Of a stretch of 52,839 nt of DNA, positions 18,409-52,766 are shown piece by piece. The notes beneath the pieces are model-generated. The model ran no database searches, was not told the DNA's origin, and was given only the letters and a program-made list of their open reading frames with translations. Origin of the DNA: an uncultured Bacilli bacterium (GTDB lineage: Bacteria > Bacillota_I > Bacilli_A > RF39 > UBA660); contig CAOOMX010000003.1 in assembly GCA_948497845.1 (NCBI GenBank), forward strand, positions 1 to 52,839, written 5' to 3'. Each line of letters opens with the position of its first letter. The first letter of the stretch is position 1. Made by a program: the position numbers and the translations under genes.

Positions 18409-18455
18409 TGGTGTCCCCTCAGAGATTCGAACTCTGGACCCACTGATTAAGAGTC
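18409..18455 (-). tRNA. 3' half of split host tRNA-Lys(CUU): anticodon loop to CCA
   Basis: The minus strand reads GACTCTTAATCAGTGGGTCCAGAGTTCGAATCTCTGAGGGGACACCA. T arm is CAGAG/TTCGAAT/CTCTG. The acceptor 3' strand AGGGGAC pairs with GTCTCCT at 52760..52766. Confidence 0.85.
18445..18455. repeat. attL core (direct repeat GATTAAGAGTC)
   Basis: Identical to 52727..52737. The flanking bases differ on both sides. Confidence 0.85.
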
Positions 18456-18594
18456 TTTTTTTATATACTTTAATAGTGTCTAAAAAGAACTAATTATTGT
18501 ATATAAATTCCCATAAAACATAGGGATACCACCAAATTTATACTTATTTAGAAATATATGTTACATAAATAAATATAATAGTATATTGACCTTT

Positions 18595-18643
18595 TTGCAC
18601 CGATTTGCACCGATAGGTCATCCACTGAACTTTTTGCACCGAT
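18595..18643 (+). repeat. Three direct TTGCACCGAT repeats (candidate integrase/Xis arm-type sites)
   Basis: Copies lie at 18595..18604, 18605..18614 and 18634..18643. Two more copies lie at the other element end (52622..52642) in the same orientation. Confidence 0.6.
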
Positions 18644-18679
18644 TAGGGTAAAAAAATTCAGAATCAGTTTTCAAATAAA

Positions 18680-19014
18680 TGGTGGGCTGTTAGGGATTCG
18701 AACCCTAGACCCACTGATTACAACAATGTTATCATATTAGCTTTTTATCTAATATTTCTACATATTACTAATTCTATGTAGTTCAGCATACATTATCAGC
18801 CAAATACTTGGTTGTCGAACACTCGTGGAAGTATTATATTTATTCAACTTCTATGCGTTACACTACTTAATAGCCTTTCGCAATCTATTAAGTTAGCACG
18901 GTATTGGCATTTCAGCGTTTACCGTTTTTGCTCGATTTTCATTGTTATATTACTATAACAAGCTCCCAGTGTTTTACCAAGAGTCAGTTGCTCTACCAAC
19001 TGAGCTAACAGCCC
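18680..19014 (-). tRNA. Element-borne tRNA-Lys(CUU) interrupted by a 259-nt intron in the anticodon
   Basis: Exon 1 is 19014..18980, GGGCTGTTAGCTCAGTTGGTAGAGCAACTGACTCT. Exon 2 is 18720..18680, TAATCAGTGGGTCTAGGGTTCGAATCCCTAACAGCCCACCA. Joined, they give a 76-nt cloverleaf with acceptor GGGCTGT/ACAGCCC, T stem TAGGG/CCCTA and encoded CCA. Confidence 0.75.
18721..18979 (-). ncRNA. Group I-like intron (hand-folded)
   Basis: P1 is CUCU|UGG/CUGGGAG with U.G at the 5' splice site. P2 is UUGUUAUA-GUAA-UAUAACAA. Further helices: P3 UCGAGC/GUUCGA, P4 ACGGUA/UACCGU, P6 ACUUAAUAG/CUAUUAAGU, P7 GCAUA/UAUGC, P7.1 GAAGU/ACUUC. Then P8 CAACCAA-GUAU-UUGGCUG, P9 CUACAUA/UAUGUAG and P9.1 AUAUUAG/CUAAUAU. The last intron nucleotide is G. 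No covariance-model search was run. Confidence 0.6.
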
Positions 19015-19035
19015 ATAAATTTGAATTACTCATTG

Positions 19036-19044
19036 AGTATAGCA
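19036..19044 (-). promoter_or_regulatory. Extended -10 promoter (TGCTATACT) for the element tRNA
   Basis: The minus strand reads AGTATGCTATACT about 20 nt upstream of tRNA position 1. It closely resembles the ICE cassette promoters (AGTATGCTATAAT). Confidence 0.45.
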
Positions 19045-19096
19045 TACTTTTATAAAAAAATAAATACCATTTTTTCATTTTCTGCTTAATTTATGC

Positions 19097-19136
19097 AAAA
19101 AAAATAAATGCTAGAACAATTTTCATTATTCTAGCA
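19097..19136 (-). terminator. Terminator after the integrase gene
   Basis: On the minus strand, TGCTAGAA-12 nt-TTCTAGCA followed by TTTATTTTTTTT. Confidence 0.6.
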
Positions 19137-20678
19137 TTTTATATATTCATTGTTTTGTATCACTTCTAACAAGAATTTATTTCCATATACAGCCCTTATT
19201 CTTTTCTCAAAATCATCCTTTGAATATTGTTTCTGCAAAGATACCATATTTTCTAATGATGGATAATTCGCCATTAAATAATTTTTTGTAGAGTTTATAT
19301 TTTCTGATAAATTGCTATAAGTTATTTCGGCTTTTGGATTTATAGACTTTAGTAAATATATTATTTTACTAATCTCAACATATTCATTACCTGTAACTAT
19401 AGATGCTATATACATAATTGGGGCATAAAGAGTATTATCTTCGTTAATATCTATTCGATTATTAAAAACATTATCAAATACTGTAGTTGCTTTTTTCAGC
19501 TTTTCTTCTGACTTGTGAACGTATTTATAGGTAGTTTGAATATTTGCGTGTCCTGCAAGAGCTTGTACTTCTGATGGTGTTAAATCATCATTATAATTCA
19601 TTTGATAAGTTATATATGTATGTCTTAATCCATGAAAGGTAGCATCAATATCATGTTTCTTTGCGAATTTAGACCATAATTTACCAACGTATCTAGGGCG
19701 AAAATAATCGCTATCTTTATTTAAAAACAAATTGGGAAGATTCTTATAGTCTATACCAAATTGGGCTTTGTAAAGATTTACTAAAACCGTTCGATATTTT
19801 AAATACTGTTTTAGACTAATCATAAGTATTTCAGGTAATGGTATCCCACGTTCGCTATATTCGGATTTTAACTCATATTCTTCATATTGTCTTGTTTTGT
19901 AGTTTTGTTTTACAGCCTTTTTTAAAAATACTTTATTATGCGTAAAGTCGATGTCCGATTCGGGATCATCTTCGCTTTGACAATGAAGTCCACAAACTTC
20001 CTCTTCACGAAGTCCTGCACATAAGCCAAAGTAAAAGATTGTTTTATCTCTGCTTGATGCATATTTTTCTATTAAATCGTTTACATTTTCAAATTCTTCG
20101 TAAGGAATAAACCCAACTTCATTTTCAATAGTAATTTTTGGTTCTTCGACACCGTCCATAGGGTTTTCTGTAATGATTTTCCATTTTTTTTGTGCTTTAT
20201 TAAATAAGATTCGCAACATTACAAATTCATGATGTAAAGTATTTGAAGATATTTTTTCTCCAGTTTTTTTATTAGGATGGTTTGGATCAATTTTATCTCT
20301 TTTACTTTCTAAAGATAAAAATAATTCAATATCTGCTGTAGTTATTTGATATAAGAGTTGTTTGCCAAAATATTTTTTTAAAGTTTTAATTCGTCCTGCG
20401 TAATCTGTGAGAGTATTGGGGCTTGGTTTTTTAGGTTTATTTTGATACCACTCAAAATATATATCACAAAACTTCTCAAAAGTTATATTTTTATCTACAT
20501 AAATATCAATTCCTAATTTCTGTTTTGCTAAAAACTTATCCCTTTCGTCAATAGCTTGTTCTAATGTGTCATATCTTTCGTCAAAATTTCCTTTGATTTT
20601 CTTGCTTTTTCTTATTTGAACTCGAAACTTTCCCTCATCTGTAATATGGATATATCTTTCGGATTTTACTTTTTTCAT
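19131..20678 (-). CDS. int: Tyrosine-type integrase with a ~127-aa C-terminal extension
   Basis: Catalytic blocks are GLREEEVCGL (Arg I region), HGLRHTYITYQ and LAGHANIQTTYKYVH. It lies next to the att site. Confidence 0.85.
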   Translation of the reverse strand: MKKVKSERYIHITDEGKFRVQIRKSKKIKGNFDERYDTLEQAIDERDKFLAKQKLGIDIYVDKNITFEKFCDIYFEWYQNKPKKPSPNTLTDYAGRIKTLKKYFGKQLLYQITTADIELFLSLESKRDKIDPNHPNKKTGEKISSNTLHHEFVMLRILFNKAQKKWKIITENPMDGVEEPKITIENEVGFIPYEEFENVNDLIEKYASSRDKTIFYFGLCAGLREEEVCGLHCQSEDDPESDIDFTHNKVFLKKAVKQNYKTRQYEEYELKSEYSERGIPLPEILMISLKQYLKYRTVLVNLYKAQFGIDYKNLPNLFLNKDSDYFRPRYVGKLWSKFAKKHDIDATFHGLRHTYITYQMNYNDDLTPSEVQALAGHANIQTTYKYVHKSEEKLKKATTVFDNVFNNRIDINEDNTLYAPIMYIASIVTGNEYVEISKIIYLLKSINPKAEITYSNLSENINSTKNYLMANYPSLENMVSLQKQYSKDDFEKRIRAVYGNKFLLEVIQNNEYIKC

Positions 20679-20689
20679 AAATTATTTAA

Positions 20690-20962
20690 TTAAGAATTCC
20701 TGTTTTTTATCCAAGTTTCTATTTCAGATTTTACAAAATATCTTTCACGACCACTTTTAAAATAAGGCAAATTCTCGTTTTTAATAGCTTGGTCTAATTT
20801 ATATTTAGAAAAAAGTTTCGGGTATATAGTTTGTAATTGCTTGGCTGTATAGACAACAGAATCAGGGCTTTTATTAGTATTTATACCCATGCAATTAGCG
20901 ATAAAATCATAAGCTGTTATTCCTTTAAGAGTTTCAATAACTTGGTTATTTTCTTGATTCAT
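20690..20962 (-). CDS. xis: Excisionase-like helix-turn-helix DNA-binding protein
   Basis: 90 aa. The C-terminal block YTAKQLQTIYP...NLPYFKSGRERYFVKSEIETWI fits the excisionase-family HTH pattern. It lies immediately upstream of int. Confidence 0.55.
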   Translation of the reverse strand: MNQENNQVIETLKGITAYDFIANCMGINTNKSPDSVVYTAKQLQTIYPKLFSKYKLDQAIKNENLPYFKSGRERYFVKSEIETWIKNRNS

Positions 20963-20975
20963 AATTCCTCCTTTT

Positions 20976-23174
20976 CTATAATTGGTTTGTTATATTTTTG
21001 GCATCAAAAAAAGTAATAACAGTAGTATTACTTTCATTGATAGTTTGGATTTCTATGTTAATCATTGGCATTATTTGTTCAATGATTTTATTTTCTTCGT
21101 ACATACTAATTTTTCTATTTATAATTATTTGATTATCTACAGAATTTATATTAAATAGTTGTTCAACATTTTTTATTACAGTTTTTAATGTACTATTATC
21201 ATTTTCTATAATTGGCTCTAGCATATTATCGGATACATCGTTATTTGAAGTATTTAGATTTTCATAAGCATTTTTCATTTGTTCTACAGTATAGTAATTT
21301 TCTGTATTCTTTTTTAACATTTTGGGAGTACGTTCTATTGGAACAAACTCATAATCATTAAAAACGTCATTGTATAAATATGTATCTCGAAAGATAGCAT
21401 TTGACACAGTTGGGAATATAATTGTTTTATATTTTAAAGCAATAATTTCATTTGCTGTTAATAGTTCCCTACCGAGAAGAGAAGTAGTCTTATTAGCACC
21501 AATTTTGAAATGATCGGTACTTTGACTTATAGATTGGGTTTCTATAGTAGCCTTTCCGAGCTTACGTGAAATTATTTCGGCACAATCTACAGAGTTTGTT
21601 TTTAGGTAACACAAAGCCGAGTTATCTTGAATAATAGAAGAGGTTTCTTTTCCATAAACCTGATCGAGTTGAGCGAAACTTTGGATAAAGAACTGAAATC
21701 TCATACCTCTTGACCTAGCTACAGAAACTATCGTTTCAATATCTGCTAAAGGTGGGCAATTTGCGAACTCATCAAGTATCCACTCAATTTTACGGGGCAA
21801 GGTTCCATTATTTTGGGGCAAATTAGCGAGTTTTGTTAATTCCTTATAAAGAATACCTACAATAATAGTAATAAGCCCATAATAGCTTTTATCCTCGTCA
21901 GGAACGATAATATAAAGTATGCTTGGTTTTTCTACTAGAGAAGATATTTCAAAATCACTTGTACTAGTGATATTTTCAACGTTTAAATCATCAAAGATTT
22001 GCATTTTTTCTCCAAAGACAGCCGTAACACTTTTGTATGTATTTTCATTTGCCGATAAAATAGAAGTAAGGTAGTCTTTTGATAAAGTACCATATTCACG
22101 AGTATTAAGATTTCTTTGTAAATAAAGTTGATTTTCTTTCAATAAAGAAGAGTTTTGAAATTTTTTAATACTTGAAACATTGATTTTACTTTCAGGAATC
22201 AAGCCATTTTGATAGTCCTCTAAAAAAATACCAGTAATTCCTTTGAATAAGTTTTTAGAAGAATTAAGCCAAAATGGGTCTTTTGTTTCTTTTTCAGCAA
22301 ATATTAAATCAGCTACAGTATTCGTAAGTCGTATAGCTTCGGCTTGAGAAGATGAACTATGATTCTGATAATCTTTAATATAATTAAGCAAGTCTATGAT
22401 GCTAACAGTTTTATAGTCAAAATCTACTAGTTCATTTATAACACGGAAAAAATCTTCACTTTCTAATTTTTCATTGATAACATCAATTTTATTAAGAAAA
22501 TACTCGATAACATAATTATCAATATTGTTTTGTGTTTTAATATCATTTCGATAATTAGTATCAATTATAAATTTTTCATAATCAATATTTAATTTATGGA
22601 ATAGTAAACACATAGAAGAAAATAACTTTTCATCATATAGACAATGAACTTTCCACTCGTCAATAATAGGTTTCATAATATTTATATGTGTAGATAATGT
22701 TGGATTACGAAAATCTATAGTAATGATATTTTCATATCCATTGTCTTTGAATATTTTGGACGTCTTGCTAAAAATTTCTCCTTTGGGATCGGTAATTATT
22801 AAGGTCGGTTTTGATTTAGTTTGAGAAAAGAAAATTGTTTCATTAAGTACAAGAGTAGTCGATTTACCACTTCCTGTAGAACCTATAATAATCCAATGAG
22901 GACTAACATTGTCAAAATATATATTAGTAAATTTTCCTTTATCTTGTTCATAGTAAATAGGAAATCCTGCTTTCTCGATATGGTTAATATTTTCTTTTAA
23001 AAACGTTTTACTTATTTCTTTTAGAGTAGCGAACTTACTTGATCCATGCTCATTATGATTTTTTATTTTTGATTTACTTAATCTAGGCTCAATAAATAAA
23101 ATGAACAAGATTGTCGCAATAATTAAAACGAGAAGAAGAATTGAAAAAAAGGATAAGTTACTGTCTAATCTGAT
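20976..23174 (-). CDS. Type IV coupling protein (VirD4/TraG family)
   Basis: Walker A IIIGSTGSGKSTT and Walker B EWILDEFANCP. The tracked start is TTG 23108, but the frame is open to 23189 and encodes a TM helix (LSFFSILLLVLIIATILFILFI) that spans that TTG. ATC 23174 lies 9 nt after AAAGGA and is a possible true start, so the start is uncertain. Confidence 0.8.
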   Translation of the reverse strand: MRLDSNLSFFSILLLVLIIATILFILFIEPRLSKSKIKNHNEHGSSKFATLKEISKTFLKENINHIEKAGFPIYYEQDKGKFTNIYFDNVSPHWIIIGSTGSGKSTTLVLNETIFFSQTKSKPTLIITDPKGEIFSKTSKIFKDNGYENIITIDFRNPTLSTHINIMKPIIDEWKVHCLYDEKLFSSMCLLFHKLNIDYEKFIIDTNYRNDIKTQNNIDNYVIEYFLNKIDVINEKLESEDFFRVINELVDFDYKTVSIIDLLNYIKDYQNHSSSSQAEAIRLTNTVADLIFAEKETKDPFWLNSSKNLFKGITGIFLEDYQNGLIPESKINVSSIKKFQNSSLLKENQLYLQRNLNTREYGTLSKDYLTSILSANENTYKSVTAVFGEKMQIFDDLNVENITSTSDFEISSLVEKPSILYIIVPDEDKSYYGLITIIVGILYKELTKLANLPQNNGTLPRKIEWILDEFANCPPLADIETIVSVARSRGMRFQFFIQSFAQLDQVYGKETSSIIQDNSALCYLKTNSVDCAEIISRKLGKATIETQSISQSTDHFKIGANKTTSLLGRELLTANEIIALKYKTIIFPTVSNAIFRDTYLYNDVFNDYEFVPIERTPKMLKKNTENYYTVEQMKNAYENLNTSNNDVSDNMLEPIIENDNSTLKTVIKNVEQLFNINSVDNQIIINRKISMYEENKIIEQIMPMINIEIQTINESNTTVITFFDAKNITNQL

Positions 23175-25730: not shown

Positions 25731-25970
25731 CTACAATAATACTTTTGAATCTTTTTTTAAATCATTAAAAGTACTTAATGCTGATTCTAGGCTACTGCGA
25801 TATTCTGCTCGTGATAAATAACCGTCTGTAAAGATAGCATCACATACAATAAAATGTTCTACATTATTTTCACTATAGACTAAATAACCGTTATCGCATT
25901 TATCTAAAATATGACACGTTCCTAAACCTGCATTTTCGATAACTTCATATTTTTTATAATCTTTTATCAT
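25731..25970 (-). CDS. Hypothetical small protein
   Basis: 79 aa, overlapping the relaxase stop by 4 nt (translational coupling). Confidence 0.45.
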   Translation of the reverse strand: MIKDYKKYEVIENAGLGTCHILDKCDNGYLVYSENNVEHFIVCDAIFTDGYLSRAEYRSSLESALSTFNDLKKDSKVLL

Positions 25971-27415
25971 TTATAAACTCCTTTCTCATTTTCTGAAAGC
26001 ATTTGATAAAATTGCTCGGCAACTTTATCTTGCTGATATTTTAATCTCCCTAAAGCACTTGTTACAGCTTTTTGATAGGAATAATTTTTTTGAAAACTAT
26101 TTTTTAATAAATTTGTTTTTTTATTTTTCTTTTGATTAAGATAAACTAAAAGCACAGCCTCGTTCATAATATCATTTATGGAAATCGCTGATTTGGAAGT
26201 AAAGCGATTATTATAAACGTATAATGAATTATTGACGATAGCATTTAAAACATAATTGTCATATTTTTCTAATTTATCTTGAACTAGCTTACTGTCTTTT
26301 GCATCTTCAAATCCTACATTACTAATATGATTTTCAATATCTATATTCTTAAAGATAGTATTGATTTCTTCGATGCTTTTATCTATTTCTTTTTTTGATA
26401 AATTGATTTCTTTAGAAGAAAGAATATTTTTCTTTATGTCCTGTGTAAGCAATCTAATTTCTTTACCTATATGATTTTTTGGAAGAGAATTATATTTGAT
26501 ATGTTTAGAATTTTGTCTTACCTGATTTAATAAATAACCTAATCTTAATATTTTGTATTCTAAATCTATATTTTTAATATTCTTTAAAGTAAAACTTCTT
26601 TCTTTTGGATTGAAAAACTTTTTATATTCTTCCAAACTTTGATTTAATTTTATAAGAGATGGAGTAAATACCTTTGCCCTCTCAATAGAGAGGATAGATT
26701 GACGTTTCATAAAATTTAATTCTTCCTCATTAAGATTTAATCGTTGTTTGAAGTGAAGTTTATTATCTGTAGTACGATACGATTCTTTTTTTTCAATAAA
26801 ACCGATATGGAAATGATAATTATTTCTATCTACAGCCGAGTGAAGAGCTACTACCCAATCCATTGTTTGATTTGGATTTTCATAGCCACACCTTTTTAAA
26901 AACATAGGCATTATTTTTGTAGCAAGTTCTTTTTGTAATTCATCAATACCAATATTCTGATCGACATAATCTTTATTAAAAGATAAAACGGATAAATGAA
27001 TATTACTTTTATCAAAAAGTTTAGACCAGTAAAAATTTTTTTTACAGGCTTCGGAATCACTAACGTATTTACCTGACTTATCCATCATCATCTTTTCACG
27101 TTTCATTGAATTTAATTCCATGATAGATGATTCTTTTTTACCACCCATCATATAATCAAAAAGGTTAGAATTATTTTCTAAATCTTTCAAAGATATATTG
27201 GCTTTTTCTTCATTACGAGAATAAGTCATATATCCACTTTTTCCAAAAAGATAATCTTTTGCTTGACGAGAATAATCTTCTTTGTTCTTACATTGTTTGA
27301 AAATTCTTTTATCTGTTTTTCTATCCTTACCCTTATAAAGTTTATAATCGTTGTCTTTATTATTGACAGCAAAGAAAGGGTTATCAATAAAAACTACTTT
27401 AGGACTACTCATCAT
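25967..27415 (-). CDS. Putative conjugative relaxase (MobL-like)
   Basis: The N-terminus MMSSPKVVFIDNPF...SGYMTYSRNEEKA provides a candidate catalytic Tyr region. A histidine cluster HSAVDRNNYHFH (H-x8-H-x-H) is present. It lies next to the candidate oriT. The family call is from memory of MobL N-termini. Confidence 0.55.
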   Translation of the reverse strand: MMSSPKVVFIDNPFFAVNNKDNDYKLYKGKDRKTDKRIFKQCKNKEDYSRQAKDYLFGKSGYMTYSRNEEKANISLKDLENNSNLFDYMMGGKKESSIMELNSMKREKMMMDKSGKYVSDSEACKKNFYWSKLFDKSNIHLSVLSFNKDYVDQNIGIDELQKELATKIMPMFLKRCGYENPNQTMDWVVALHSAVDRNNYHFHIGFIEKKESYRTTDNKLHFKQRLNLNEEELNFMKRQSILSIERAKVFTPSLIKLNQSLEEYKKFFNPKERSFTLKNIKNIDLEYKILRLGYLLNQVRQNSKHIKYNSLPKNHIGKEIRLLTQDIKKNILSSKEINLSKKEIDKSIEEINTIFKNIDIENHISNVGFEDAKDSKLVQDKLEKYDNYVLNAIVNNSLYVYNNRFTSKSAISINDIMNEAVLLVYLNQKKNKKTNLLKNSFQKNYSYQKAVTSALGRLKYQQDKVAEQFYQMLSENEKGVYK

Positions 27416-27638: not shown

Positions 27639-27641
27639 AAA

Positions 27642-28177: not shown

Positions 28178-28651
28178 CTAATTATTGCTATTGATAGGCT
28201 TTTTTAAGTCTTTTTCTAATTCAAGACTATTTGAAGATAATTCTTGTGTATTTGTTTCTAATTCTAGCATTTTAGTTTTATAAATTTCATTAGCTTGTTT
28301 GATTTCATTTATTACTAATTCTAATTTATATTGCTTATTAAAATAATTTTTTTTAGTTAAATAAGATTCGTCTTTCATTGATGAATTATTATTGACTTTA
28401 TAAATAAAAGCACCATAATAATTATGCTCGTTATAATAGATTAAACTTACATCTCTTGCTTTGTTTTTATATTTTAAATTATAAAACTTGATCTTGTCGA
28501 TATTATTATTATCTAGCAATTCAATGTCAAAATCAATTCCATATTTTTGTTTTATATTTTCTAATTTTCTTTTAAATTCTAATTTCAAATCATCTTGTTT
28601 TTTGATTTTTTCTTTTAACTTCTTATCACTTGTTATACTCAAAAGCATCAC
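28178..28651 (-). CDS. Hypothetical coiled-coil protein
   Basis: Tracked 157-aa Lys/Glu-rich ORF. Confidence 0.4.
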   Translation of the reverse strand: MMLLSITSDKKLKEKIKKQDDLKLEFKRKLENIKQKYGIDFDIELLDNNNIDKIKFYNLKYKNKARDVSLIYYNEHNYYGAFIYKVNNNSSMKDESYLTKKNYFNKQYKLELVINEIKQANEIYKTKMLELETNTQELSSNSLELEKDLKKPINSNN

Positions 28652-35953: not shown

Positions 35954-36020
35954 TTTTGCTTTTATATATTGCTTTGGCTTTTTAGAATATTGTTTCTTAA
36001 TTACTTTATTTTCTTTATTT

Positions 36021-36350: not shown

Positions 36351-36362
36351 AAAACAGTCCTC

Positions 36363-41277: not shown

Positions 41278-41322
41278 ATACGTACACTCACTTTCGTAAA
41301 ATATTATAACATACTTTACACT
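41278..41322 (-). promoter_or_regulatory. Conserved promoter/operator/5'UTR block, copy 3 of 3
   Basis: The minus strand reads TTAGTGTAAA-GTATGTTATAATAT-TTTACGAAAGTGAGTGTACG. The upstream palindrome is degenerate in this copy. Confidence 0.5.
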
Positions 41323-42346: not shown

Positions 42347-42350
42347 TTAA

Positions 42351-42578
42351 TTATTGTTCCAGTCCATTTGAATTTTCTTTTTCTTGTTCTTTTTGATTAG
42401 CAAACATAAAGTCTTGAACTCTACTATGTATCATGTGTTGCAAAATACCTATATTATTATCAAAATATGAATTGTATAACTTTTCTAATTCATTATTTGG
42501 TATTTCATAACCATAATGTTTCGCTACTTCTTTTATGTTATTTTTAAATTCTTCTTGAAATTCTTTCGACCATTTCAT
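42351..42578 (-). CDS. Hypothetical small protein
   Basis: Tracked 75-aa ORF. Confidence 0.4.
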   Translation of the reverse strand: MKWSKEFQEEFKNNIKEVAKHYGYEIPNNELEKLYNSYFDNNIGILQHMIHSRVQDFMFANQKEQEKENSNGLEQ

Positions 42579-43312
42579 TTTAAGACCTCCTTACGTTTTA
42601 TTGCTTCCTCAATTCTTTTTTGAGAAGTAGAAAAATGTTGTTCGCTTTTTTCCATACCTATAAACTTACGATTACCACCAACATTGACAACAGCCTCTCC
42701 TGTAGTACCACTACCCATAAAACAATCTAGTATAGTTTCACTTTCTCTAGAGCTATTGATAACAAAATTTTCAATAATAGATAATGGTTTTATAGTAGGA
42801 TGTCCATAAAGTTTTTTCTCTTTTTGAGTAGTAGGCAAATAAAAAACTGTCTTTCCTAGCTGATAAGATGGTGGGTTACAATATCCACGTTTACGAAAAT
42901 ATAGACAGTATTCTTTATCACTTAAATATTTATTATTAAATAAAGGCATAGCATTTGTTTTATTCCAAATAAGTATTTCATAAGAGCAATTATATTTGCC
43001 TATAAAAAAATCAAGATATTGTTTTATCTGTGCTAAATTACACCAAATATAGATATTTATTTTCTCTTGTATTCTTATAAATTCTTCTAAAATTGATAAA
43101 TCGTAGTTATCAATCAAATCATCAGCACGTAACTCTTGTTCTAAAGACAGAAGAGTTTTTGCCAATCTACTTTTACCTTTTTTGCCACCATCCATATTAA
43201 GTAAATATGGTGGATCAATAATAATTAAATCTACACTATTATCAGGTATATTTTTAATAAGTAAATTACTATCTCCTAAATATAATTTAATATTATTGTT
43301 TATATATATCAC
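42575..43312 (-). CDS. Orphan DNA methyltransferase (beta-class N6A/N4C; DPPY before FxGxG)
   Basis: Motif IV DLIIIDPPY and motif I ILDCFMGSGTTGEA. No restriction endonuclease gene is adjacent. Confidence 0.8.
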   Translation of the reverse strand: MIYINNNIKLYLGDSNLLIKNIPDNSVDLIIIDPPYLLNMDGGKKGKSRLAKTLLSLEQELRADDLIDNYDLSILEEFIRIQEKINIYIWCNLAQIKQYLDFFIGKYNCSYEILIWNKTNAMPLFNNKYLSDKEYCLYFRKRGYCNPPSYQLGKTVFYLPTTQKEKKLYGHPTIKPLSIIENFVINSSRESETILDCFMGSGTTGEAVVNVGGNRKFIGMEKSEQHFSTSQKRIEEAIKRKEVLK

Positions 43313-43328
43313 TTCCTTTTTTTATTGG

Positions 43329-43778
43329 CTAATTTGTATCTAGTTCTAAATCTCTCTCTAGTTCTATATCTAGGGGACAAAGTTGGGACATTTGTCCTTT
43401 TTCCATTTCAATACGTTTTCGATACTCTCGTTTACGATCGGCTTCAGTAGAACTTTTACCAATCATGGATTGAATATCAGACATATAAATAGTTCCGTTT
43501 TCTAAAACTTCAATCAATCCTAAACTTTCAAATATTTTAAGGGCTTTTTCAACGTCATTGGGGTTATGACGAATTACTTTTGCTATTAGGTTAGGATTAT
43601 ATGGTATTTTATTATTAAAGAGTAAACGACCATCATTTTTTAGACTTTTAAGATATAGTTTTAAGAGTATATTAGAATAGATATACCCGTTCTCCATTGA
43701 TTCTAAAATAATCAGTTCTTCACTATCGAAGAAGTTGTCTTTTAATTTTAAATAATAGTATTTACGATTATCTGCCAT
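43329..43778 (-). CDS. Phage replisome-organizer N-terminal-domain protein
   Basis: MADNRKYYYLKLKDNFFDSEELIILESMENGYIYSNILLKLYLKSLKNDGRL matches the pattern seen in Firmicutes conjugative transposons. The call is from memory. Confidence 0.6.
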   Translation of the reverse strand: MADNRKYYYLKLKDNFFDSEELIILESMENGYIYSNILLKLYLKSLKNDGRLLFNNKIPYNPNLIAKVIRHNPNDVEKALKIFESLGLIEVLENGTIYMSDIQSMIGKSSTEADRKREYRKRIEMEKGQMSQLCPLDIELERDLELDTN

Positions 43779-44023
43779 TAGTTTTTATTCCTATGCAATT
43801 TTTCTTGAACAATAAGAAGTTTCTCATTTAATTCTACAGCTTTATTTTTAGTAGATTTTAATTCTTCTGTAATTATATCTTGTTCAATTAAAAGACGGAC
43901 ATATTCAGCACCACTAACAGACAAATCATTTGACTTATTTATTAAATGACTTTTTTGCTTTGTATTCAGTACAAATTCAAAATCTTTGTCAAAATGTTTT
44001 TTTCTCATTAGTCCTCCTCTCAA
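43778..44023 (-). CDS. Hypothetical small protein
   Basis: Tracked 81-aa ORF. ATG 44008 is an alternative start. Confidence 0.35.
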   Translation of the reverse strand: MRGGLMRKKHFDKDFEFVLNTKQKSHLINKSNDLSVSGAEYVRLLIEQDIITEELKSTKNKAVELNEKLLIVQEKLHRNKN

Positions 44024-44667
44024 TAGGGCATTTTATCAATTAGTTTTGTAGTGATAATAACTTGCTTATTTTTATTTACAGGGTCGCAAGTAGTCAAAAT
44101 AAGATTTGTTTCATCTTCTTTTTTCGATATGGTAATATTACCAGTTTTATCTTGACGTTCATTGCTCGTAACCTCATAAATATATTTGATATTTTTGTAA
44201 TAGATATAAACTTGATCTGATATTTCCAATTTATTTAGATGACGAAAGTAAGATATATTTGCACTACCCGAATGGGATGCTAAAACAAGCAAGCCATTTT
44301 CGACATCAGGCATATCCGATTTTTTTAAAATAGCAACATTTTTATTGATATTATTGTTTTTGTCATCAATGGAAAGCAAACCACGTTTTAAGTTGATTTT
44401 AGGTATTTCTAAAACAGCTATGTAGTTATAACTACTCTTTGGAGTAGAGGGTATTTCTTGTTTATTTTCTGTTTCATTATTTGTATTATCAAAACTATCT
44501 TCTTGAATATTAAAAAATTCTTGAATAGAATTATTTTCTAATTGTTTAATGGAATAATTATGATAGATTTTAAAACAAATAAAACCAAAACCCAAAAAAA
44601 TAAGTAAAAAGCCGACTACAGAGAGTAATCGACTTAATATTTTATTTTTGTTTTTTCTTTTTTTCAT
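44020..44667 (-). CDS. Sortase (transpeptidase) dedicated to the adjacent adhesin
   Basis: N-terminal TM anchor, His motif LVLASHSG and Cys motif LILTTCDP. ATG 44667 is preferred over the tracked 44706 start. Confidence 0.7.
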   Translation of the reverse strand: MKKRKNKNKILSRLLSVVGFLLIFLGFGFICFKIYHNYSIKQLENNSIQEFFNIQEDSFDNTNNETENKQEIPSTPKSSYNYIAVLEIPKINLKRGLLSIDDKNNNINKNVAILKKSDMPDVENGLLVLASHSGSANISYFRHLNKLEISDQVYIYYKNIKYIYEVTSNERQDKTGNITISKKEDETNLILTTCDPVNKNKQVIITTKLIDKMPY

Positions 44668-47413
44668 AGATAACGATTCCGATTCCACCAAGAATAGCAA
44701 GACCACTTAATACATACATTAAGTCAATACCGTTAATTCCTGTGTTAGGTACAGAGTAATTTACAAGTGTAGATTCAATTACTGCACCATTTTCAGTAAC
44801 AGAGAAAAATACTTTTTCATCATTAAGGTTATAACCTAAAATTGTTTCCAATTCTTTGTAGTAGTAAGAGTTATATTCAAGTTCTAATTCAATATCGCCA
44901 AATTTATTGGTATAGTATTTTCCGATTAAATTATCCTCTAAATCAAAAATACCAATTAAAACTCCTGCTAGAGGAGTACCGTTTTCATCAACTTTATGAA
45001 TTTTAACTATAGATTTAATTTTTTCATTTATCATAGTAGATTTGATGATTTCTCCATCTTCTTTGATTTCAAATTCCATAGGTTCATCATTAAGAATATA
45101 ACCCTCTGGTGCTTCGGATTCAAAAAGTACAAATTTTGAAACAAATAGGTCTTTGATAATGATTCTTCCAAATTCGTCTGTCTTACCTTTAAAAATAAGT
45201 CTTTGTTCCTCATTTTCATTATTTGTATAGATAGTAATTGTTGTATTTGGAAGAGGATTACCTGCAACGTCTGTCTTTGTAAATTCAAAATCTCCTTTTT
45301 TTAGATAGTTTTTAAGAGTTAAAGTATATGTAACGGTTTTTGTATATTGATCTTCGTATTCTAATTCAAAGCAATGTTTAGAAGAATCTACAACGTGATT
45401 TCCAACACTTGCACGTTCAATCAAACAGTATTTTCCTAAATACATATTACTTAATTTGTAAAAACCATTTTCAGTATAGAAAGAAGTAACAAGTTCTTTA
45501 TCTTTATAGATTAAAGTACCATCTTGTGAATAAATATCGCCATCAGCATATAACTCATAATATACACCATCTAGCTCAATCTCCTCGTAATGGAAACCGT
45601 TTTCATCAAAGACAATTTGTTCGCCAATTTTATTTACGATAATTTCTCCTTTGACTTGTTCATTAGCAAATTTTACTTCTAATAAAACACCTAGTTCCTC
45701 ATCATTTGTAAATTTAGAATTTTCGCCAATCTCAAAAATTAAAGGTTCGCTATTCCAAAGATAACCGTCGATTTTTTGATTCTCAACTTCCTCTAGGGCA
45801 TAACGTCCACATGAAAGAGGATAAGGAGTTATAATTATACCGTTTTTATCCATCTCAAAAGTATCAAGAGTTTGTGCTGTAGGATAAGTAATAGTTTGCT
45901 TAATGTATTCTCCTGTAGATAAATCTTTAATTCTAAATTTTAATCCCTCACGGATAATAACTTTTTGAGAATCTTTATCAATTTTTACAACTTTTAATCT
46001 TGCTGTAATAGGAGCATTAGATAAAATTTGATAATATGGATTTTCTGTATTTTCATTTACGTTAATCTCAAAGTCGTCAACTTTTTCATAGTTTGGAGTT
46101 GTGTTTTTTTGATGAACACGATATTTTCCATAAGGTAAATTTACTTTTAAACTACCTTTTGAATTTGTCTTGCCTGTAGTATATAATTTACCACTAGAAA
46201 TTAGGTAAAATTCAAATTCGATATTTGGCTCTCCTGTAAGAATTGCTGTTGATCCATTGGCATAGACTTTAAATAATTCAACGTCAACGTCAATAACGTC
46301 CTCATATAGTTTTAATGTAGGATATAGATTATCTGCTGTTAATTCAAACCAATGGATAGATTCGTCAAGTCGATAGCCTTTTCCTGCAATTTCTTCTTTT
46401 AGATAGAAACGACCTAGTGATGGTAAATAATCACTTGTACCTTTGTTATCATTTCCAATAGTAACTTGTCCAACACGGACGTTTTGTTCATTGTACACAC
46501 CATACACAGAACCTATCATTTGGGCATCTCCTAAGGGAGTATAGCTCATAGTACGAGAATCTAGTTTTTCGCCTGTGATTTTTCCTCCTAAAACGTTTAT
46601 GTTAATGTCATTTTCGATAGGATCATAACTACCAACCTGAACAACGTTTTGTGTATCAGGCTTTACATAAACGATAGTAGGATGAGAATACTTTACATCT
46701 CTTTTAGATAATGAAATATTTGTATTACCAACTGCATTTGCTTGTAAATATAAATCATTACCATTTTTACTAGAAGTGATAAGAGAATTTGATGATACAT
46801 TGTATTCTGATAATACACCGTTTCTATCAGTTAATTTCAATGTTTGACCGATGACTGTTTCAAAATTTGTTCCTCCAAAATCGGGAGTAGTATAATGCTT
46901 ACTTAATAAGGCTTCCATTTCTGCCATTTCACTTGTGTATTTAGTAATTCGGTTACCATTTAAACTGTCGGTAAAATAAATATCGTATCCATGAGGTACA
47001 GTTTGCCATATCATAAATTGGGTAACAGAATACCATTTTAAATCAGTATGATTTACTTGTGAATCACTATAACCATATCCATAATAAGCTAATAGCTGAA
47101 TACGTCGCCATTGAGCTTGTGTCATGTTAGCAACGTAAGACTGATCGTAATCTTGTCCTGTATAAACCTGATTACTGTCTAAAGGCACACCTGGTTCGAT
47201 ACAATAAACAAATTGATTATCACTTTTTCTTGCTATTACACTTAATTGTTGGTATTTCGTGTTACTTCCTTTTTGTTTGCTTATCCAAGTTTGAGGTATC
47301 CACTTATACTTATCGTTAAATGATTCTTGATATGTTTGTGCTTTTACATTTAAAGTAGGACATACTGCTATAAGTCCAAATAAAAGCAATAAATATTTTA
47401 ATTTCTTTTTCAA
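44642..47413 (-). CDS. Cell-wall-anchored adhesin: N-terminal thioester-like domain + SpaA/CnaB-type repeats + VPNTG sorting signal
   Basis: It has a signal peptide. The Cys motif FVYCIEPGVPL and Gln motif VTQFMIWQ fit a TQXA-type thioester domain. Several prealbumin-like repeats are present (…FESEAPEGYILNDEPMEFEI…). The C-terminus is SVPNTG plus a TM helix plus KKKKQK. Confidence 0.7.
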   Translation of the reverse strand: MKKKLKYLLLLFGLIAVCPTLNVKAQTYQESFNDKYKWIPQTWISKQKGSNTKYQQLSVIARKSDNQFVYCIEPGVPLDSNQVYTGQDYDQSYVANMTQAQWRRIQLLAYYGYGYSDSQVNHTDLKWYSVTQFMIWQTVPHGYDIYFTDSLNGNRITKYTSEMAEMEALLSKHYTTPDFGGTNFETVIGQTLKLTDRNGVLSEYNVSSNSLITSSKNGNDLYLQANAVGNTNISLSKRDVKYSHPTIVYVKPDTQNVVQVGSYDPIENDININVLGGKITGEKLDSRTMSYTPLGDAQMIGSVYGVYNEQNVRVGQVTIGNDNKGTSDYLPSLGRFYLKEEIAGKGYRLDESIHWFELTADNLYPTLKLYEDVIDVDVELFKVYANGSTAILTGEPNIEFEFYLISSGKLYTTGKTNSKGSLKVNLPYGKYRVHQKNTTPNYEKVDDFEINVNENTENPYYQILSNAPITARLKVVKIDKDSQKVIIREGLKFRIKDLSTGEYIKQTITYPTAQTLDTFEMDKNGIIITPYPLSCGRYALEEVENQKIDGYLWNSEPLIFEIGENSKFTNDEELGVLLEVKFANEQVKGEIIVNKIGEQIVFDENGFHYEEIELDGVYYELYADGDIYSQDGTLIYKDKELVTSFYTENGFYKLSNMYLGKYCLIERASVGNHVVDSSKHCFELEYEDQYTKTVTYTLTLKNYLKKGDFEFTKTDVAGNPLPNTTITIYTNNENEEQRLIFKGKTDEFGRIIIKDLFVSKFVLFESEAPEGYILNDEPMEFEIKEDGEIIKSTMINEKIKSIVKIHKVDENGTPLAGVLIGIFDLEDNLIGKYYTNKFGDIELELEYNSYYYKELETILGYNLNDEKVFFSVTENGAVIESTLVNYSVPNTGINGIDLMYVLSGLAILGGIGIVIYEKKKKQK

Positions 47414-49868: not shown

Positions 49869-49948
49869 AGATTTTTTTCCTCACTTTTATATGATAGATA
49901 TTATAACATTTAATGAGTAAATAACAATACCCCAGTTTTTGGTAATAT

Positions 49949-50383
49949 CTATTCTTTATCACATAATTTGTCTAAATCAATATCAAAGAAATCAGCAAGT
50001 AAAATTAAACGATCGATGGGAATTCTAGTTTGACCTTTAAAATAACTGTAGCAAGTAGATTTCGCACACTCTATATAAGTGGCTATTGTATCATAACTAG
50101 CTTTTCGAGAAGTTTTAAAATTATTTAAAGTTTTTAACATTTTATCATAATTCATTTTCTTTATTTTGACATCATGATTGTTACATTGTTTATCAACTCC
50201 TAATACATAAGATAAACGAACATTGTAGTATACAGATAATTGGTCGGCATATTCTAATGGAATCATTACTATACCTAGTTCCCAATTCTTATAATTATTG
50301 CGATTAAAATTTAATTCTTCTGATAATTCTTTCTGTGAAATTTCACGTTCATTTCTTAACTTTTTTAAATTATTTAAGTACAT
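49949..50383 (-). CDS. HTH regulator with two XRE-like halves
   Basis: The halves are ISQKELSEELNFNRNNYKNWELG and SYDTIATYIECAKSTCYSYFKG. ATG 50383 lies 5 nt after AGGTGG. The tracked GTG 50392 sits inside the SD. Confidence 0.5.
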   Translation of the reverse strand: MYLNNLKKLRNEREISQKELSEELNFNRNNYKNWELGIVMIPLEYADQLSVYYNVRLSYVLGVDKQCNNHDVKIKKMNYDKMLKTLNNFKTSRKASYDTIATYIECAKSTCYSYFKGQTRIPIDRLILLADFFDIDLDKLCDKE

Positions 50384-50475
50384 AAAAACCACCTATATTA
50401 TTTTCTCATTTAATGTAGGTGGCAAAACTTTTTGTCCAATCAGTCGAACAAACTTATTCAACTTTTAAAGTTTTA

Positions 50476-50484
50476 TGTTATAAT
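50476..50484 (+). promoter_or_regulatory. Plus-strand extended -10 promoter (TGTTATAAT) reading antisense through the repressor gene toward the cargo operon
   Basis: The 13-mer TATGTTATAATAG is identical to the ICE cassette promoter core. Confidence 0.45.
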
Positions 50485-50504
50485 AGAACAAGAAGTAGAG
50501 TAAA

Positions 50505-50756
50505 TTACTTCTTGTTCATATCGATTCGCCTAGGGAGTTTCGTGTCTTTAGCCTTTACAAATAACTGAAAAGGCTCTATACCTAAACTTTCACATAGCAA
50601 CTCCATTTTATCAAAGTCGAAACTGTGCATACCTCGTTCAATTTCACTTAAATAAGTTGGCGATATATCAATTTTTTCAGCAAGTTTTGCTTGGGTGTAA
50701 TTTTTAAGAAATCTGTAATATTTTACATTTTTACCAAAAGTACGTCGAATATACAC
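50505..50756 (-). CDS. XRE-family HTH repressor-like protein, divergent from the cargo operon
   Basis: GTG start 6 nt after GAGGTGA. HTH sequence YTQAKLAEKIDISPTYLSEIERG. Confidence 0.65.
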   Translation of the reverse strand: MYIRRTFGKNVKYYRFLKNYTQAKLAEKIDISPTYLSEIERGMHSFDFDKMELLCESLGIEPFQLFVKAKDTKLPRRIDMNKK

Positions 50757-50787
50757 CGTATCACCTCATCTACTAATATGATACGGT
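50755..50787. promoter_or_regulatory. Perfect 9-bp inverted repeat (ACCGTATCA-N15-TGATACGGT) over the repressor start and SD
   Basis: Read directly from the sequence. It may be a candidate operator or an RNA hairpin that sequesters the SD. Confidence 0.35.
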
Positions 50788-50976
50788 TTTTCTTTAAAAT
50801 ACTAAACAAGCTCAAAACGTAGAACTTTAATTGATGATATGAAGAAATTACACGTGAATATCAATAAAAATAAGACTATAAGGCTTATTAACTACTAATA
50901 TTCACAACGAAATATAAAAAAGAAAGGAAGTGAACAATGCTTTAAGAAAGAAGTAAAAGAATTAAGGCAAACTATT

Positions 50977-51288
50977 ATGTTGGATGAACGTAAAATAATG
51001 CAAGAACAGTTAAACATTTTCATTAAGGATTTAGAAACTATCGAAAGCTATTACAAAGATGGTTATTCTATTCTCTGGGATATACTCAAATGTAATTTAA
51101 CTGTTACGTACAATAACAATAAATATGTAGTTAGTCTTGTTATAAAAGATAATCAATGTTATTGGCATCTAGTACCATATAATCACTCTTTTTTTGAAAC
51201 AGCTATAGAAGATGGAATTTGCAACCTTAATTATGTCCTGTTTGCCATTAAAGAAAATGAAATGCTGTATAACAAGAAAGGAAACTAA
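50977..51288 (+). CDS. Hypothetical protein (cargo operon gene 1)
   Basis: Tracked 103-aa ORF. Confidence 0.45.
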   Translation: MLDERKIMQEQLNIFIKDLETIESYYKDGYSILWDILKCNLTVTYNNNKYVVSLVIKDNQCYWHLVPYNHSFFETAIEDGICNLNYVLFAIKENEMLYNKKGN

Positions 51289-51291
51289 AAA

Positions 51292-51507
51292 ATGAATAAT
51301 AACGATATTAACAAAAAAAATGTAGTACCTGATTCTGATAGCAAAGATAAGCCCAACTGCTTTGCTTGGATTTCAAAAAGCAAATGTAATGCTTTATGTA
51401 TTAAGGATTGTAAAAATTGTAGTTTTTATAGGCATTACAGCGAAGTACCTAATTATGATAAGTATATTAGCAAAGATGACTTAAAAGAAAGGAGTAAATA
51501 CAGATGA
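51292..51507 (+). CDS. Small Cys-rich protein (cargo operon gene 2)
   Basis: 71 aa with the pattern C-x9-C-x3-C-x3-C-x2-C (CFAWISKSKCNALCIKDCKNC). It overlaps gene 3 by ATGA. Confidence 0.45.
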   Translation: MNNNDINKKNVVPDSDSKDKPNCFAWISKSKCNALCIKDCKNCSFYRHYSEVPNYDKYISKDDLKERSKYR

Positions 51508-52238
51508 CTGTAGATTCTAAAAGAGAACTTTTACGTTACAAATTATTAGATCAAAGATACGATTATGATATGGAAATTTACACACTCCTTAATAGTGGTA
51601 AAATGGATGACATAATTTCTAAAATAAGTGATTCCTCTTTTTCTTTTGGAATAGAGCCTATTGATGGAGAATATACGGTTAAACATTTTTTAAATTTTAT
51701 GGAATTGTTTGTTAAAATTATGAAATCTTATTTTTTTAATGCTTACTCTATAAGTAATTTAATGAGTGAAATTATTAGAAATTGCAAAACCGAATTAGAA
51801 GATTTTTTTAGTGTTAAAACTAATGAATATGAATTGTATAAAATTTATGAGAATAAATTAGTTTTAGAAAAATTATACAAACTAATTATAAGCAACTTTA
51901 TTAAAAATGCTGAATATATTCCGTTAATTGAAAATGTATTAAATGATAATGGAATCGTACTTAAACGAGTAAATGATTATGATTATAGCGAAAGTAAAAG
52001 AATATTAAATGTATTATCTGATATTGTTTTTTGTCAAAGAGGTCATGGTAAAATTATAGAATTATTTGAGAATATAGAATTTAATTTACAGAGCCATTTA
52101 AAATCGAAGAAAAATGGCAAAACAAAACACACTATTGAATATCACAAAGAAAAGTTTTTGAAAAAACGTATTGGTAATTATGAAAAAATGTTCAAAAGTT
52201 ATGAAAATAAAAAAAAGTATTTAAAATACTTCATTTAG
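51504..52238 (+). CDS. Hypothetical helical protein (cargo operon gene 3)
   Basis: Tracked 244-aa ORF. No motif recognised. Confidence 0.45.
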   Translation: MTVDSKRELLRYKLLDQRYDYDMEIYTLLNSGKMDDIISKISDSSFSFGIEPIDGEYTVKHFLNFMELFVKIMKSYFFNAYSISNLMSEIIRNCKTELEDFFSVKTNEYELYKIYENKLVLEKLYKLIISNFIKNAEYIPLIENVLNDNGIVLKRVNDYDYSESKRILNVLSDIVFCQRGHGKIIELFENIEFNLQSHLKSKKNGKTKHTIEYHKEKFLKKRIGNYEKMFKSYENKKKYLKYFI

Positions 52239-52254
52239 AAAGGTAATATTAAAT

Positions 52255-52515
52255 ATGAATATGCTTGATCTTATTAAAAAGAAAAAATCAATAGATGATT
52301 CTACTATTATTATAAAAAATAATGAAATTCCTTACGAAGAAATAAAGGATAAGAAAAAAGTAACCTTTGTAATTGCTTCAAGTGATAAAAAAGTAATACA
52401 AACTACTTGCCAATTGATTATAAATTATGAAAAAGAAAATCCTGATAAAGAAATTACTGTTTTCTTATCAAGTAGTTATGAAACAGTAGATAGAATTGCA
52501 AAAGGTATTATTTAA
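52255..52515 (+). CDS. Hypothetical protein (cargo operon gene 4)
   Basis: Tracked 86-aa ORF. Confidence 0.45.
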   Translation: MNMLDLIKKKKSIDDSTIIIKNNEIPYEEIKDKKKVTFVIASSDKKVIQTTCQLIINYEKENPDKEITVFLSSSYETVDRIAKGII

Positions 52516-52526
52516 TAATTTGAAAT

Positions 52527-52557
52527 AACAACTGCTAGTATATGGGTTGTTTTTTTA
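52527..52557 (+). terminator. Terminator of the cargo operon
   Basis: AACAAC (52527..52532) pairs with GTTGTT (52546..52551), followed by a T-run. Confidence 0.45.
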
Positions 52558-52621
52558 TTCGTCTAAATATATATAAATAAGGAAAGATAAATCTATTAAA
52601 GTCTAAATAAATATAAAAAAA

Positions 52622-52642
52622 TTGCACCGATTTTGCACCGAA
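52622..52642 (+). repeat. Two direct TTGCACCGA(T/A) repeats (arm-type sites, right end)
   Basis: Copies at 52622..52631 and 52633..52642, in the same orientation as the three copies at 18595..18643. Confidence 0.6.
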
Positions 52643-52644
52643 AC

Positions 52645-52672
52645 ATAAAAAAAAGCATTTACGATAAATGCT
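52645..52672 (-). terminator. Element-encoded terminator facing the host tRNA promoter
   Basis: On the minus strand, AGCATTTA-TCG-TAAATGCT followed by TTTTTTTT, about 55 nt after the truncated 5' tRNA half. Confidence 0.65.
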
Positions 52673-52726
52673 TAAACCCTTATAAATAAAGGAATTTTAT
52701 ATAGAAACTCTTTGAGTAGAGCAACG

Positions 52727-52737
52727 GATTAAGAGTC
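52727..52737. repeat. attR core (direct repeat GATTAAGAGTC)
   Basis: Identical to 18445..18455. Confidence 0.85.
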
Positions 52738-52766
52738 AGTTGCTCTACCAACTGAGCTAAGGAGAC
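52727..52766 (-). tRNA. 5' half of split host tRNA-Lys(CUU): position 1 to the anticodon loop
   Basis: The minus strand reads GTCTCCT-TA-GCTC-AGTTGGTA-GAGC-A-ACTGA-CTCTTAA-TC and then continues into non-tRNA element DNA. Confidence 0.85.

Follow-up and report, generated by a model that had tools for sequence, protein, structure and literature searches.

What becomes of a transfer RNA (tRNA) gene whose anticodon loop is entered by a mobile element that brings no substitute half with it? The question is raised by a 52,839-nt stretch of DNA from an uncultured Bacilli bacterium (RF39; UBA660; assembly GCA_948497845.1, contig CAOOMX010000003.1, forward strand), here called the window, in which an integrative and conjugative element (ICE) of 34.3 kb interrupts a host tRNA-Lys(CTT) gene. 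A sequence-only reading of the window had described an unrepaired gene disruption. The host gene was indeed found to be truly split while the ICE is integrated, but the element carries a tRNA-Lys(CTT) gene of its own (19014..18680). We put the probability at roughly 70% that the ICE disrupts the host gene and replaces it in trans, as the conjugative-element counterpart of the "tRNA-dependent lysogeny" of phages.

The split gene and its two junctions, one of them next to the integrase gene (int) and the other at the distal end of the element, were located as follows.

52727..52766, minus strand: 5' half of the host tRNA-Lys(CTT) gene, tRNA positions 1-40, reading GTCTCCTTAGCTCAGTTGGTAGAGCAACTGACTCTTAATC
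52727-52737, minus strand: second copy of an 11-bp core, closing the host 5' half at the distal junction ('attL')
18409..18455, minus strand: 3' half of the host gene, positions 30-76 including CCA, reading GACTCTTAATCAGTGGGTCCAGAGTTCGAATCTCTGAGGGGACACCA
18445-18455, minus strand: core copy at the int-proximal junction ('attR'), opening the host 3' half
52791..52799, minus strand: promoter-like extended -10 element (tgatataat) of the host tRNA gene, read from the sequence

Both halves, which had been placed at 52766-52727 and 18455-18409 on the minus strand, were recovered exactly as quoted, and the 3' half spans the loop, the 3' anticodon stem, the variable loop, the T arm, the acceptor 3' strand and CCA. 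The core shared by the junctions, GACTCTTAATC, consists of the 7-nt anticodon loop plus 2 bp of the stem on either side, and its only two occurrences in the whole window are those at the ICE junctions; the anticodon loop as point of insertion was borne out. When the halves were joined in silico through the core, ARAGORN returned a canonical 76-nt tRNA-Lys(ctt), the outcome that the sequence-only reading had proposed as a check. Neither junction as present in the window yielded a tRNA with ARAGORN, and no RNA gene was listed in the entire 52.8 kb by default ARAGORN or by Rfam at the gathering threshold. One end of the element continues from the core with CGTTGCTCTACTCAAAGAG, and at the other end A-rich DNA leads up to the core. 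The attachment site of the element (attP) therefore brings neither a substitute 3' nor a substitute 5' tRNA segment, in agreement with the earlier claim, and the segment that marks classical tRNA-restoring elements is absent. Since attP holds no tRNA half, neither junction can yield a working gene, and the target remains split for as long as the ICE stays integrated. A hybrid tRNA at the distal junction, with a degenerate 3' half past the core, was ruled out, as ARAGORN and Rfam found nothing there.

The distal junction also holds an inverted repeat.

52716..52725, minus strand: decamer GTTGCTCTAC at the end of the element, which repeats tRNA positions 19-28 (GTAGAGCAAC, 52748-52739) perfectly in inverted orientation

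The junction thereby forms a 10+1+11+1+10 palindrome centred on the anticodon loop, GTAGAGCAAC-T-core-C-GTTGCTCTAC (window 52716-52748). The probability of a chance 10-mer match at one fixed position is about 1e-6, and the decamer, which mirrors the D-stem/anticodon-stem arm of the tRNA, may be a core-type integrase site. The generic pattern GTAGAGCAAC-N-GACTNNNAATC-N-GTTGCTCTAC had no match in JGI metagenomes or IMG/VR. The mirror junction was accordingly dropped as a family signature and is a single-element observation.

Could the split have been created by assembly or binning, with unrelated contigs joined at a shared tRNA k-mer? Logan contigs do often break in or beside tRNA sequence, but the probability of such an artefact is practically negligible. 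The int-side junction was identical in an independent ENA contig (L001/L011) and the distal junction in 6 further contigs, so neither differs by a single base between assemblies made independently, with different assemblers, from different samples; the two element ends have repeats in common (CGGTGCAA, listed below); and the int-proximal junction has the same build in another host, in an ICE with a 68% identical integrase. Three different host flanks were found beyond the tRNA 5' end at the ICE junction, namely those of the window, of L101 (a mouse-gut metagenome) and of L106. Logan contigs L002 and L009, which share the downstream flank of the window, run through GAGCAACT, the core and the 3' half and show the host gene uninterrupted at this locus, as the empty-site check of the earlier reading had anticipated. 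An empty site in relatives and evidence of mobility, as looked for in an ICE, were thus both found. One of the L002/L009 samples also holds a contig with the ICE integrase (L012), and this co-occurrence is due either to a mixed population or to excision. The circular attP form, with the predicted junction AAGTATATAAAAAAAGACTCTTAATCCGTTGCTCTAC, was not observed.

At the same host locus, at the position equivalent to window 18455, a different and unrelated insert abuts the same core in L007:3640-5153 (Logan SRR29305854). This junction reads ...GGTGTACCCA|GACTCTTAATC|AGTGGG..., with an HTH_3 gene nearby and no integrase on this side. The host tRNA-Lys(CTT) gene is thus a hot spot for more than one element.

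The tRNA gene carried by the ICE lies on the minus strand at 19014-18680, about 225 nt inside the int-proximal end, between int and a set of short direct repeats.

19131..20678, minus strand: tyrosine integrase, 515 aa, of a rare clade whose targets are tRNA anticodon loops
19036..19044, minus strand: promoter-like tgctatact (extended -10) ahead of the ICE tRNA gene, likewise read from sequence
18980..19014, minus strand: 5' exon of the ICE tRNA, GGGCTGTTAGCTCAGTTGGTAGAGCAACTGACTCT
18721..18979, minus strand: group I-type intron of 259 nt without an open reading frame (ORF), between tRNA U35 and U36, starting UGGUAAAAC and ending UUGUUG
18680..18720, minus strand: 3' exon of the ICE tRNA, TAATCAGTGGGTCTAGGGTTCGAATCCCTAACAGCCCACCA
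18595..18641, minus strand: CGGTGCAA three times in direct repeat, as putative arm-type integrase sites of the int-proximal attP arm
52622..52640, minus strand: two further CGGTGCAA repeats, likewise putative arm-type sites, on the distal attP arm

Removal of the 259-nt insert left a perfect 76-nt tRNA-Lys(ctt) cloverleaf. The spare and the host gene are identical at 63 of 76 positions and throughout positions 8-47, the whole anticodon stem-loop included. All differences between them are compensated and fall in the acceptor stem (GGGCTGT/ACAGCCC versus GTCTCCT/AGGGGAC) and the T stem. The spliced ICE-type tRNA would read GGGCUGU...ACAGCCCACCA, with a CUCUUAA loop. ARAGORN in intron mode placed the gene at 18680-19014 with a 259-nt intron and named it Thr(tgt). 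This identity was rejected as a 3-nt register shift: the body of the exons agrees with tRNA-Lys, and no register other than that of Lys has the intron preceded by U and closed by G. It is because the intron interrupts the anticodon loop that the gene had escaped the sequence-only reading, default ARAGORN and Rfam. The tgctatact element is conserved in L108, L012, L016/L017 and L146; a consensus promoter scan did not list it, owing to a poor -35 region.

The same arrangement was found in a second ICE (L108) at a different host locus, whose integrase is 68% identical: int, promoter, interrupted tRNA, GTGCAA repeats, core and host tRNA-Lys 3' half follow in the same layout. Between the two ICEs, the tRNA exons are 100% identical and the introns 90% identical. 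In the P0002 contigs (integrase 74% identical), the promoter and the 5' exon likewise follow int. The window holds five copies of CGGTGCAA, all on the minus strand and all at the ICE ends, where 0.19 would be expected, and these five look like arm-type sites of a lambda-like integrase. GTGCAA repeats similar to CGGTGCAA occur in L013, L108 and L112.

What is the insert in the spare gene? By blastn it is 70-80% identical over about 210 nt to sequences that interrupt phage genes, among them terL of Staphylococcus phages SA2 and vB-SscS-F1, terL of the crAss-like phages cr7_1 and cr131_1 and the helicase gene of cr118_1. Other matches adjoin ORFs for HNH, GIY-YIG, LAGLIDADG or 'intron-encoded endonuclease' proteins. 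Group I introns in staphylococcal phage terL genes have been reported (PMC11934314). RNA structure was assessed on an alignment of 11 sequences (A3), with pairing partners slid out of register as the control. The helices P3, P4, P5, P6, P7, P7.1, P9 and P9.1 were 96.6% paired, compared with 29-44% in the slid controls; compensatory changes were seen in 33 of 48 pairs, and the long-range helices P3 and P7 were 100% paired. RNAalifold independently recovered every helix except the P7 pseudoknot and added P8. The helix order P3-P4-P5-P6-P7-(P7.1)-P3'-P8-P7'-P9(-P9.1) is the canonical group I topology, and the hairpin between P7 and P3' corresponds to the subgroup IA arrangement. At the 5' splice site, exon CUCU and intron UGGU pair with ACUG-GGAG in an 8-9-bp P1 hairpin that places a U.G pair at the splice site. 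P1 and a GUAA-capped P2 show compensatory changes among the tRNA-Lys copies, the first bases of the 3' exon, UAAU, can form a P10 of 3-4 bp, and a terminal G is present in all four distinct tRNA-Lys copies. Homology and modelled structure together argue strongly that the insert is a group I-type intron, and self-splicing is predicted. The intron sequence was not found in IMG/VR by exact-pattern scans.

The phage records L113-L122 show an intron lineage, undetected by the Rfam model RF00028, in genes of crAss-like, staphylococcal, clostridial and cyanobacterial phages. Several of these records list the split genes as separate coding-sequence fragments and leave the intron unmarked.

How general is the arrangement among relatives of the integrase? 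The clade is rare and consists of enzymes of about 500 aa, nearly all from metagenomes; no more than 4 GTDB representative genomes, metagenome-assembled genomes (MAGs) of uncultured Clostridia, 'Tenericutes' and Bacilli, have a member. All relatives with a readable int-proximal end show int followed by an orphan tRNA 3' half that starts in the anticodon loop. The half belongs to tRNA-Thr(TGT) in P0009 and P0008, to tRNA-Phe(GAA) in L019, L020 and P0030, and to tRNA-Lys(CTT) in P0006. Targeting of the anticodon loop, with int beside the displaced 3' half, is therefore a family trait. Homologues of the 244-aa protein encoded at the distal end of the ICE (P0090, P0101, P0077, P0080) lie in elements without a tRNA at their ends.

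Several further features were noted in these relatives. In the Thr-targeting elements L013:11640-11900 and L112:4640-4890, a promoter-like element, tgatatact, follows int and is aimed at the orphan tRNA-Thr 3' half and the tRNA array downstream of it; no tRNA gene is present there, and the element might drive this array, which the insertion severed from its own promoter. L015:11950-12025 holds a remnant in which the 5' part of a tRNA-Tyr is fused to a tRNA-Thr end (…GTTCCAGTACTATTTCCGGCACCA), between an orphan tRNA-Thr fragment and an intact tRNA-Tyr. Inside a Phe-targeting ICE, between int and the junction, L098:11640-11665 contains an anticodon-stem-loop-like sequence, GGATTAAAAATCC, which resembles the tRNA-Phe target loop.

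Several points weigh against replacement in trans. RF00028 gives no match to the insert, even at E<=10, and the insert is not recognised by Rfam. The model also misses the homologous phage terL introns, yet it detects the introns of L021, L132 and L138, so its silence on the insert reflects model coverage and carries little weight. No spare tRNA was found within 10 kb of int in the Thr(UGU)- and Phe(GAA)-targeting relatives, so that either replacement is not a family-wide rule or the gene is rebuilt in those elements at the distal end; the distal junctions of these relatives, and likewise the far ends of all 4 GTDB members, were out of reach. Splicing and aminoacylation of the ICE tRNA are predictions. 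Finally, a host tRNA-Lys(UUU) or a second CUU copy could render the spare dispensable; E. coli lives with tRNA-Lys(UUU) alone.

These points, together with the failure of either junction to rebuild a tRNA, also speak for the insertion as an uncompensated knock-out of tRNA-Lys(CUU), with AAG read by tRNA-Lys(UUU) or by another CUU copy and the interrupted tRNA of the ICE an inactive relic. There is a precedent in Gordonia phage Daredevil, which neither rebuilds the tRNA nor carries one. We nevertheless consider a relic unlikely. The exons have stayed 100% conserved between ICEs with 68% identical integrases while the intron and the flanks diverged, and every acceptor- and T-stem change relative to the host gene is compensated. 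No helix of the ribozyme core has been lost, nor have the U.G pair of P1 and the terminal G, and the promoter element is conserved; a relic would hardly retain all of these.

The spare could alternatively be functional cargo unrelated to the target, adding codon capacity or countering an anticodon nuclease, with the match in isotype a coincidence. The tRNA-Lys species is a classic target of anticodon nucleases. Phage tRNAs have been proposed to evade tRNA-targeting defences (PMC10264068, PMC11555353). The anticodon of the spare, however, is exactly that of the gene that the element destroys, and its positions 8-47 are identical to those of the host, so it carries no escape mutation. In two ICEs it is moreover part of the integration module, flanked by int on one side and the arm sites on the other, and it is absent within 10 kb of int from the Thr- and Phe-targeting relatives. 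Cargo of this kind is therefore quite unlikely.

Under disruption with replacement in trans, the following course is proposed. A lambda-like tyrosine integrase using arm-type sites would insert the ICE into the anticodon loop of the chromosomal tRNA-Lys(CUU) gene, with strand exchange within the 11-bp core GACTCTTAATC. The host gene would stay split during integration and would be restored by excision. In the meantime the promoter-preceded tRNA-Lys(CUU) of the ICE, after self-splicing, would be expected to supply the tRNA in trans.

Why should the spare contain an intron at this very position? Because its positions 8-47 equal those of the host, an intron-less spare would be a perfect target site (attB) in direct orientation about 225 bp from the attP core. 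With the intron in the middle of the presumed overlap region (GACTCT|TAATC), no such attB exists in the DNA. We hypothesise that avoidance of self-targeting is the reason for the presence of the intron. More broadly, and tentatively, the intron may act as an anti-integration shield in a three-way conflict: it would allow the ICE to keep a full-length copy of its target beside attP without self-recombination, and the lineage, exchanged between ICE and chromosome, would immunise chromosomal tRNA-Lys(CUU) alleles against the integrase family. This extension is possible, but we would not yet call it probable.

Chromosomal counterparts of the interrupted gene were found by a metagenome scan for the 5' exon-intron junction. 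In L127, L144 and L146, which have no integrase close by, a chromosomal tRNA-Lys(CTT) gene bears an intron of the same lineage in the same place, and these intron-bearing alleles have no intact att core. The exons in L127:5855-6186 are identical to the host gene of the window. L146:1558-1889 and L144 share an identical gene, with SH3_3, Cthe_2159, tRNA-Ile/Glu, ZnuA and SMC genes as neighbours. Identity between the chromosomal intron of L146 and the ICE intron of L108 reaches 96.9%, and the promoter region upstream in L146 is similar to that of the ICE; this likeness points to recent exchange of the intron between ICE and chromosome. Synteny of L146 with the window in inverted orientation was considered and dropped, as the flanking proteins are merely 24-37% identical.

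Other introns were also met at this site. The tRNA-Lys(CTT)-like genes of L132:1910-2094 and L138:400-566 have, again at CTCT|T, group I introns that RF00028 does detect (51 and 44 bits). The mere presence of an intron in tRNA-Lys(CUU) is therefore no novelty, and this site is occupied by at least two unrelated lineages. Further CTCT|T interruptions, with inserts that Rfam does not recognise, were seen in high-GC soil contigs of the L123 type and in L134. In the uncultured Bacilli MAG MGBC161736 (L021:15162-15488, minus strand), a chromosomal tRNA-Leu(TAA) with a classical group I intron (238 nt by ARAGORN; RF00028 75 bits, E 3e-19) lies a few kb from an integrase of the family. A human-gut contig (L140, reverse strand 12842-12917) has a chromosomal tRNA-Lys(ctt) with the loop CTCTTGA, in which G at position 37 makes one mismatch in the 11-bp att core. 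Williams (2020) reports 21 tRNA/intron settings, found with RF00028-type models.

The remainder of the element is that of an ICE, as the sequence-only reading had called it. It measures 34.28 kb (18456-52737, counting one core copy), with 34,271 bp between the cores and 28% GC. Its further features are these.

19106..19139, minus strand: terminator-like hairpin and T-run at the int end, from a sequence scan
20690..20962, minus strand: 90-aa ORF with a weak HTH_17 match (excisionase-like), its position conserved in relatives
20976..23108, minus strand: type IV coupling protein, VirD4-like, CD1115 family, passing the NF045973 cut-off
25967..27415, minus strand: relaxase-like protein, 32% identical (E 2e-46) to the MobL/Relaxase-type ORF of the P0009 ICE
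28626..29612, minus strand: primase with CHC2 zinc-finger and Toprim domain matches
32572..38003, minus strand: mating-pore module, from domain matches
32572-33588, minus strand: M23 peptidase of the mating-pore module
33566-35953, minus strand: VirB4-like ATPase of the mycoplasma-ICE type, with Pfam TraG P-loop and AAA_10 matches
36363-38003, minus strand: conjugation transmembrane protein of the pLS20_p028/MMCAP2_0566 type, in the mating-pore module
41321..47413, minus strand: accessory module with an ArdC-like/M78 protein, a DNA methylase, a sortase and a surface adhesin with thioester/SpaA domains
49949..52238, mixed strands: distal regulatory end, with an HTH_3 regulator and small plus-strand ORFs
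49949-50392, minus strand: the HTH_3 regulator
51504-52238, plus strand: 244-aa ORF at the distal end

A recombinase at one end, core repeats at both ends and conjugation machinery comprising a relaxase-like protein, a coupling protein and VirB4 were thus found, alongside the Xis-like ORF and other conjugation genes. The relaxase was called solely from homology with the weak MobL/Relaxase ORF that a related ICE carries, and VirB4 scores 463 bits to the Mbov_0397 type, under the 590-bit cut-off of that equivalog. The host flank is ordinary chromosomal context, with a XerC/D-type recombinase of 299 aa (window 11858-12757) and a class I aminoacyl-tRNA synthetase of 809 aa with a Leu-type editing-domain match (window 4993-7422).

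What is new here is the probable logic of tRNA-dependent lysogeny on an ICE, together with a spare tRNA whose att core is interrupted by a group I intron of phage type. A literature search returned no report of disrupt-and-replace tRNA logic on conjugative elements; among the matches listed, the papers that use the term tRNA-dependent lysogeny are phage-centred. If the proposed reading is true, disrupting a host tRNA and bringing one's own extends from actinobacteriophages to conjugative elements of gut Firmicutes, and a phage-type group I intron has been placed in the tRNA gene of a mobile element. The locus would further offer a concrete and testable system for the long-standing proposal of a protection of tRNA genes by introns, with the same integrase family and target and with natural alleles that have or lack the intron. 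If the shield interpretation also holds, this would be the first bacterial support for tRNA introns persisting by destroying integrase attachment sites. For annotation, default tRNA finders and Rfam miss the gene and its intron, which would lead to wrong tRNA complements of such MAGs and to wrong calls of 'gene disruption' by islands, and RF00028 leaves out the intron lineage of crAss-like, staphylococcal, clostridial and cyanobacterial phages.

The closest known system is the tRNA-dependent lysogeny of the actinobacteriophages Fionnbharth/K4, Cluster L, Gaia, Cain and BrutonGaster (Guerrero-Bustamante & Hatfull 2024, PMC10865867). These phages use a tyrosine integrase and an 8-10-bp common core without reconstruction of the tRNA gene, they carry a promoter-driven tRNA of the same isotype, and integrants proved viable only with the phage tRNA (PMC10865867). 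The ICE is alike in having a tyrosine integrase, an attB in a tRNA gene, a core too short to rebuild the tRNA and an element-borne tRNA of the same isotype. It differs in being a conjugative element of low-GC gut Firmicutes, with the spare inside the integration module and a group I-type intron in the spare; the need of the tRNA for viability is shown for the phages.

Classical tRNA-targeting ICEs, islands and prophages share with this ICE a tyrosine integrase, a tRNA attB, strand exchange at or close to the anticodon loop and direct repeats that bound the element. ICEBs1 and the streptococcal tRNA-Lys ICEs are of the classical type that rebuilds the gene. Among phages, Boilgate and Ximenita do so with at least 30-45 bp of the tRNA 3' part in attP (PMC10865867). 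In contrast to such rebuilding elements, the ICE shares 11 bp only, and its int adjoins the orphan 3' half.

The intron resembles the classical group I introns of bacterial tRNA genes in its position in the anticodon loop, the U before the 5' splice site, the terminal G and the lack of an ORF. The classical introns, however, are of subgroup IC3 and detectable with RF00028, whereas the ICE intron escapes this model, includes a hairpin between P7 and P3', has its kin in phage protein genes and resides in a gene of a mobile element. With the group I introns of phage terminase, helicase and polymerase genes it shares 70-80% identity over the ribozyme core and a common covarying structure; those introns, which may or may not come with homing endonucleases, are found in protein-coding genes, and the ICE intron lies in a tRNA gene and has no endonuclease ORF. 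A 2014 review placed all phage introns known at that time in protein-coding genes, although phages have many tRNA genes (PMC3984707).

Finally, the Randau-Soll hypothesis holds, as cited in PMC4390854, that disrupted archaeal tRNA genes, intron-containing or split, persist as protection against integrating elements. The present case is alike in that an intron lies inside the integrase crossover region of a tRNA gene and that intron-bearing chromosomal alleles of the target exist (L127, L146). That hypothesis concerns archaeal introns that are spliced by proteins; here the intron is bacterial and of a predicted self-splicing type, and the gene that it would protect is, in the first place, the element's own.

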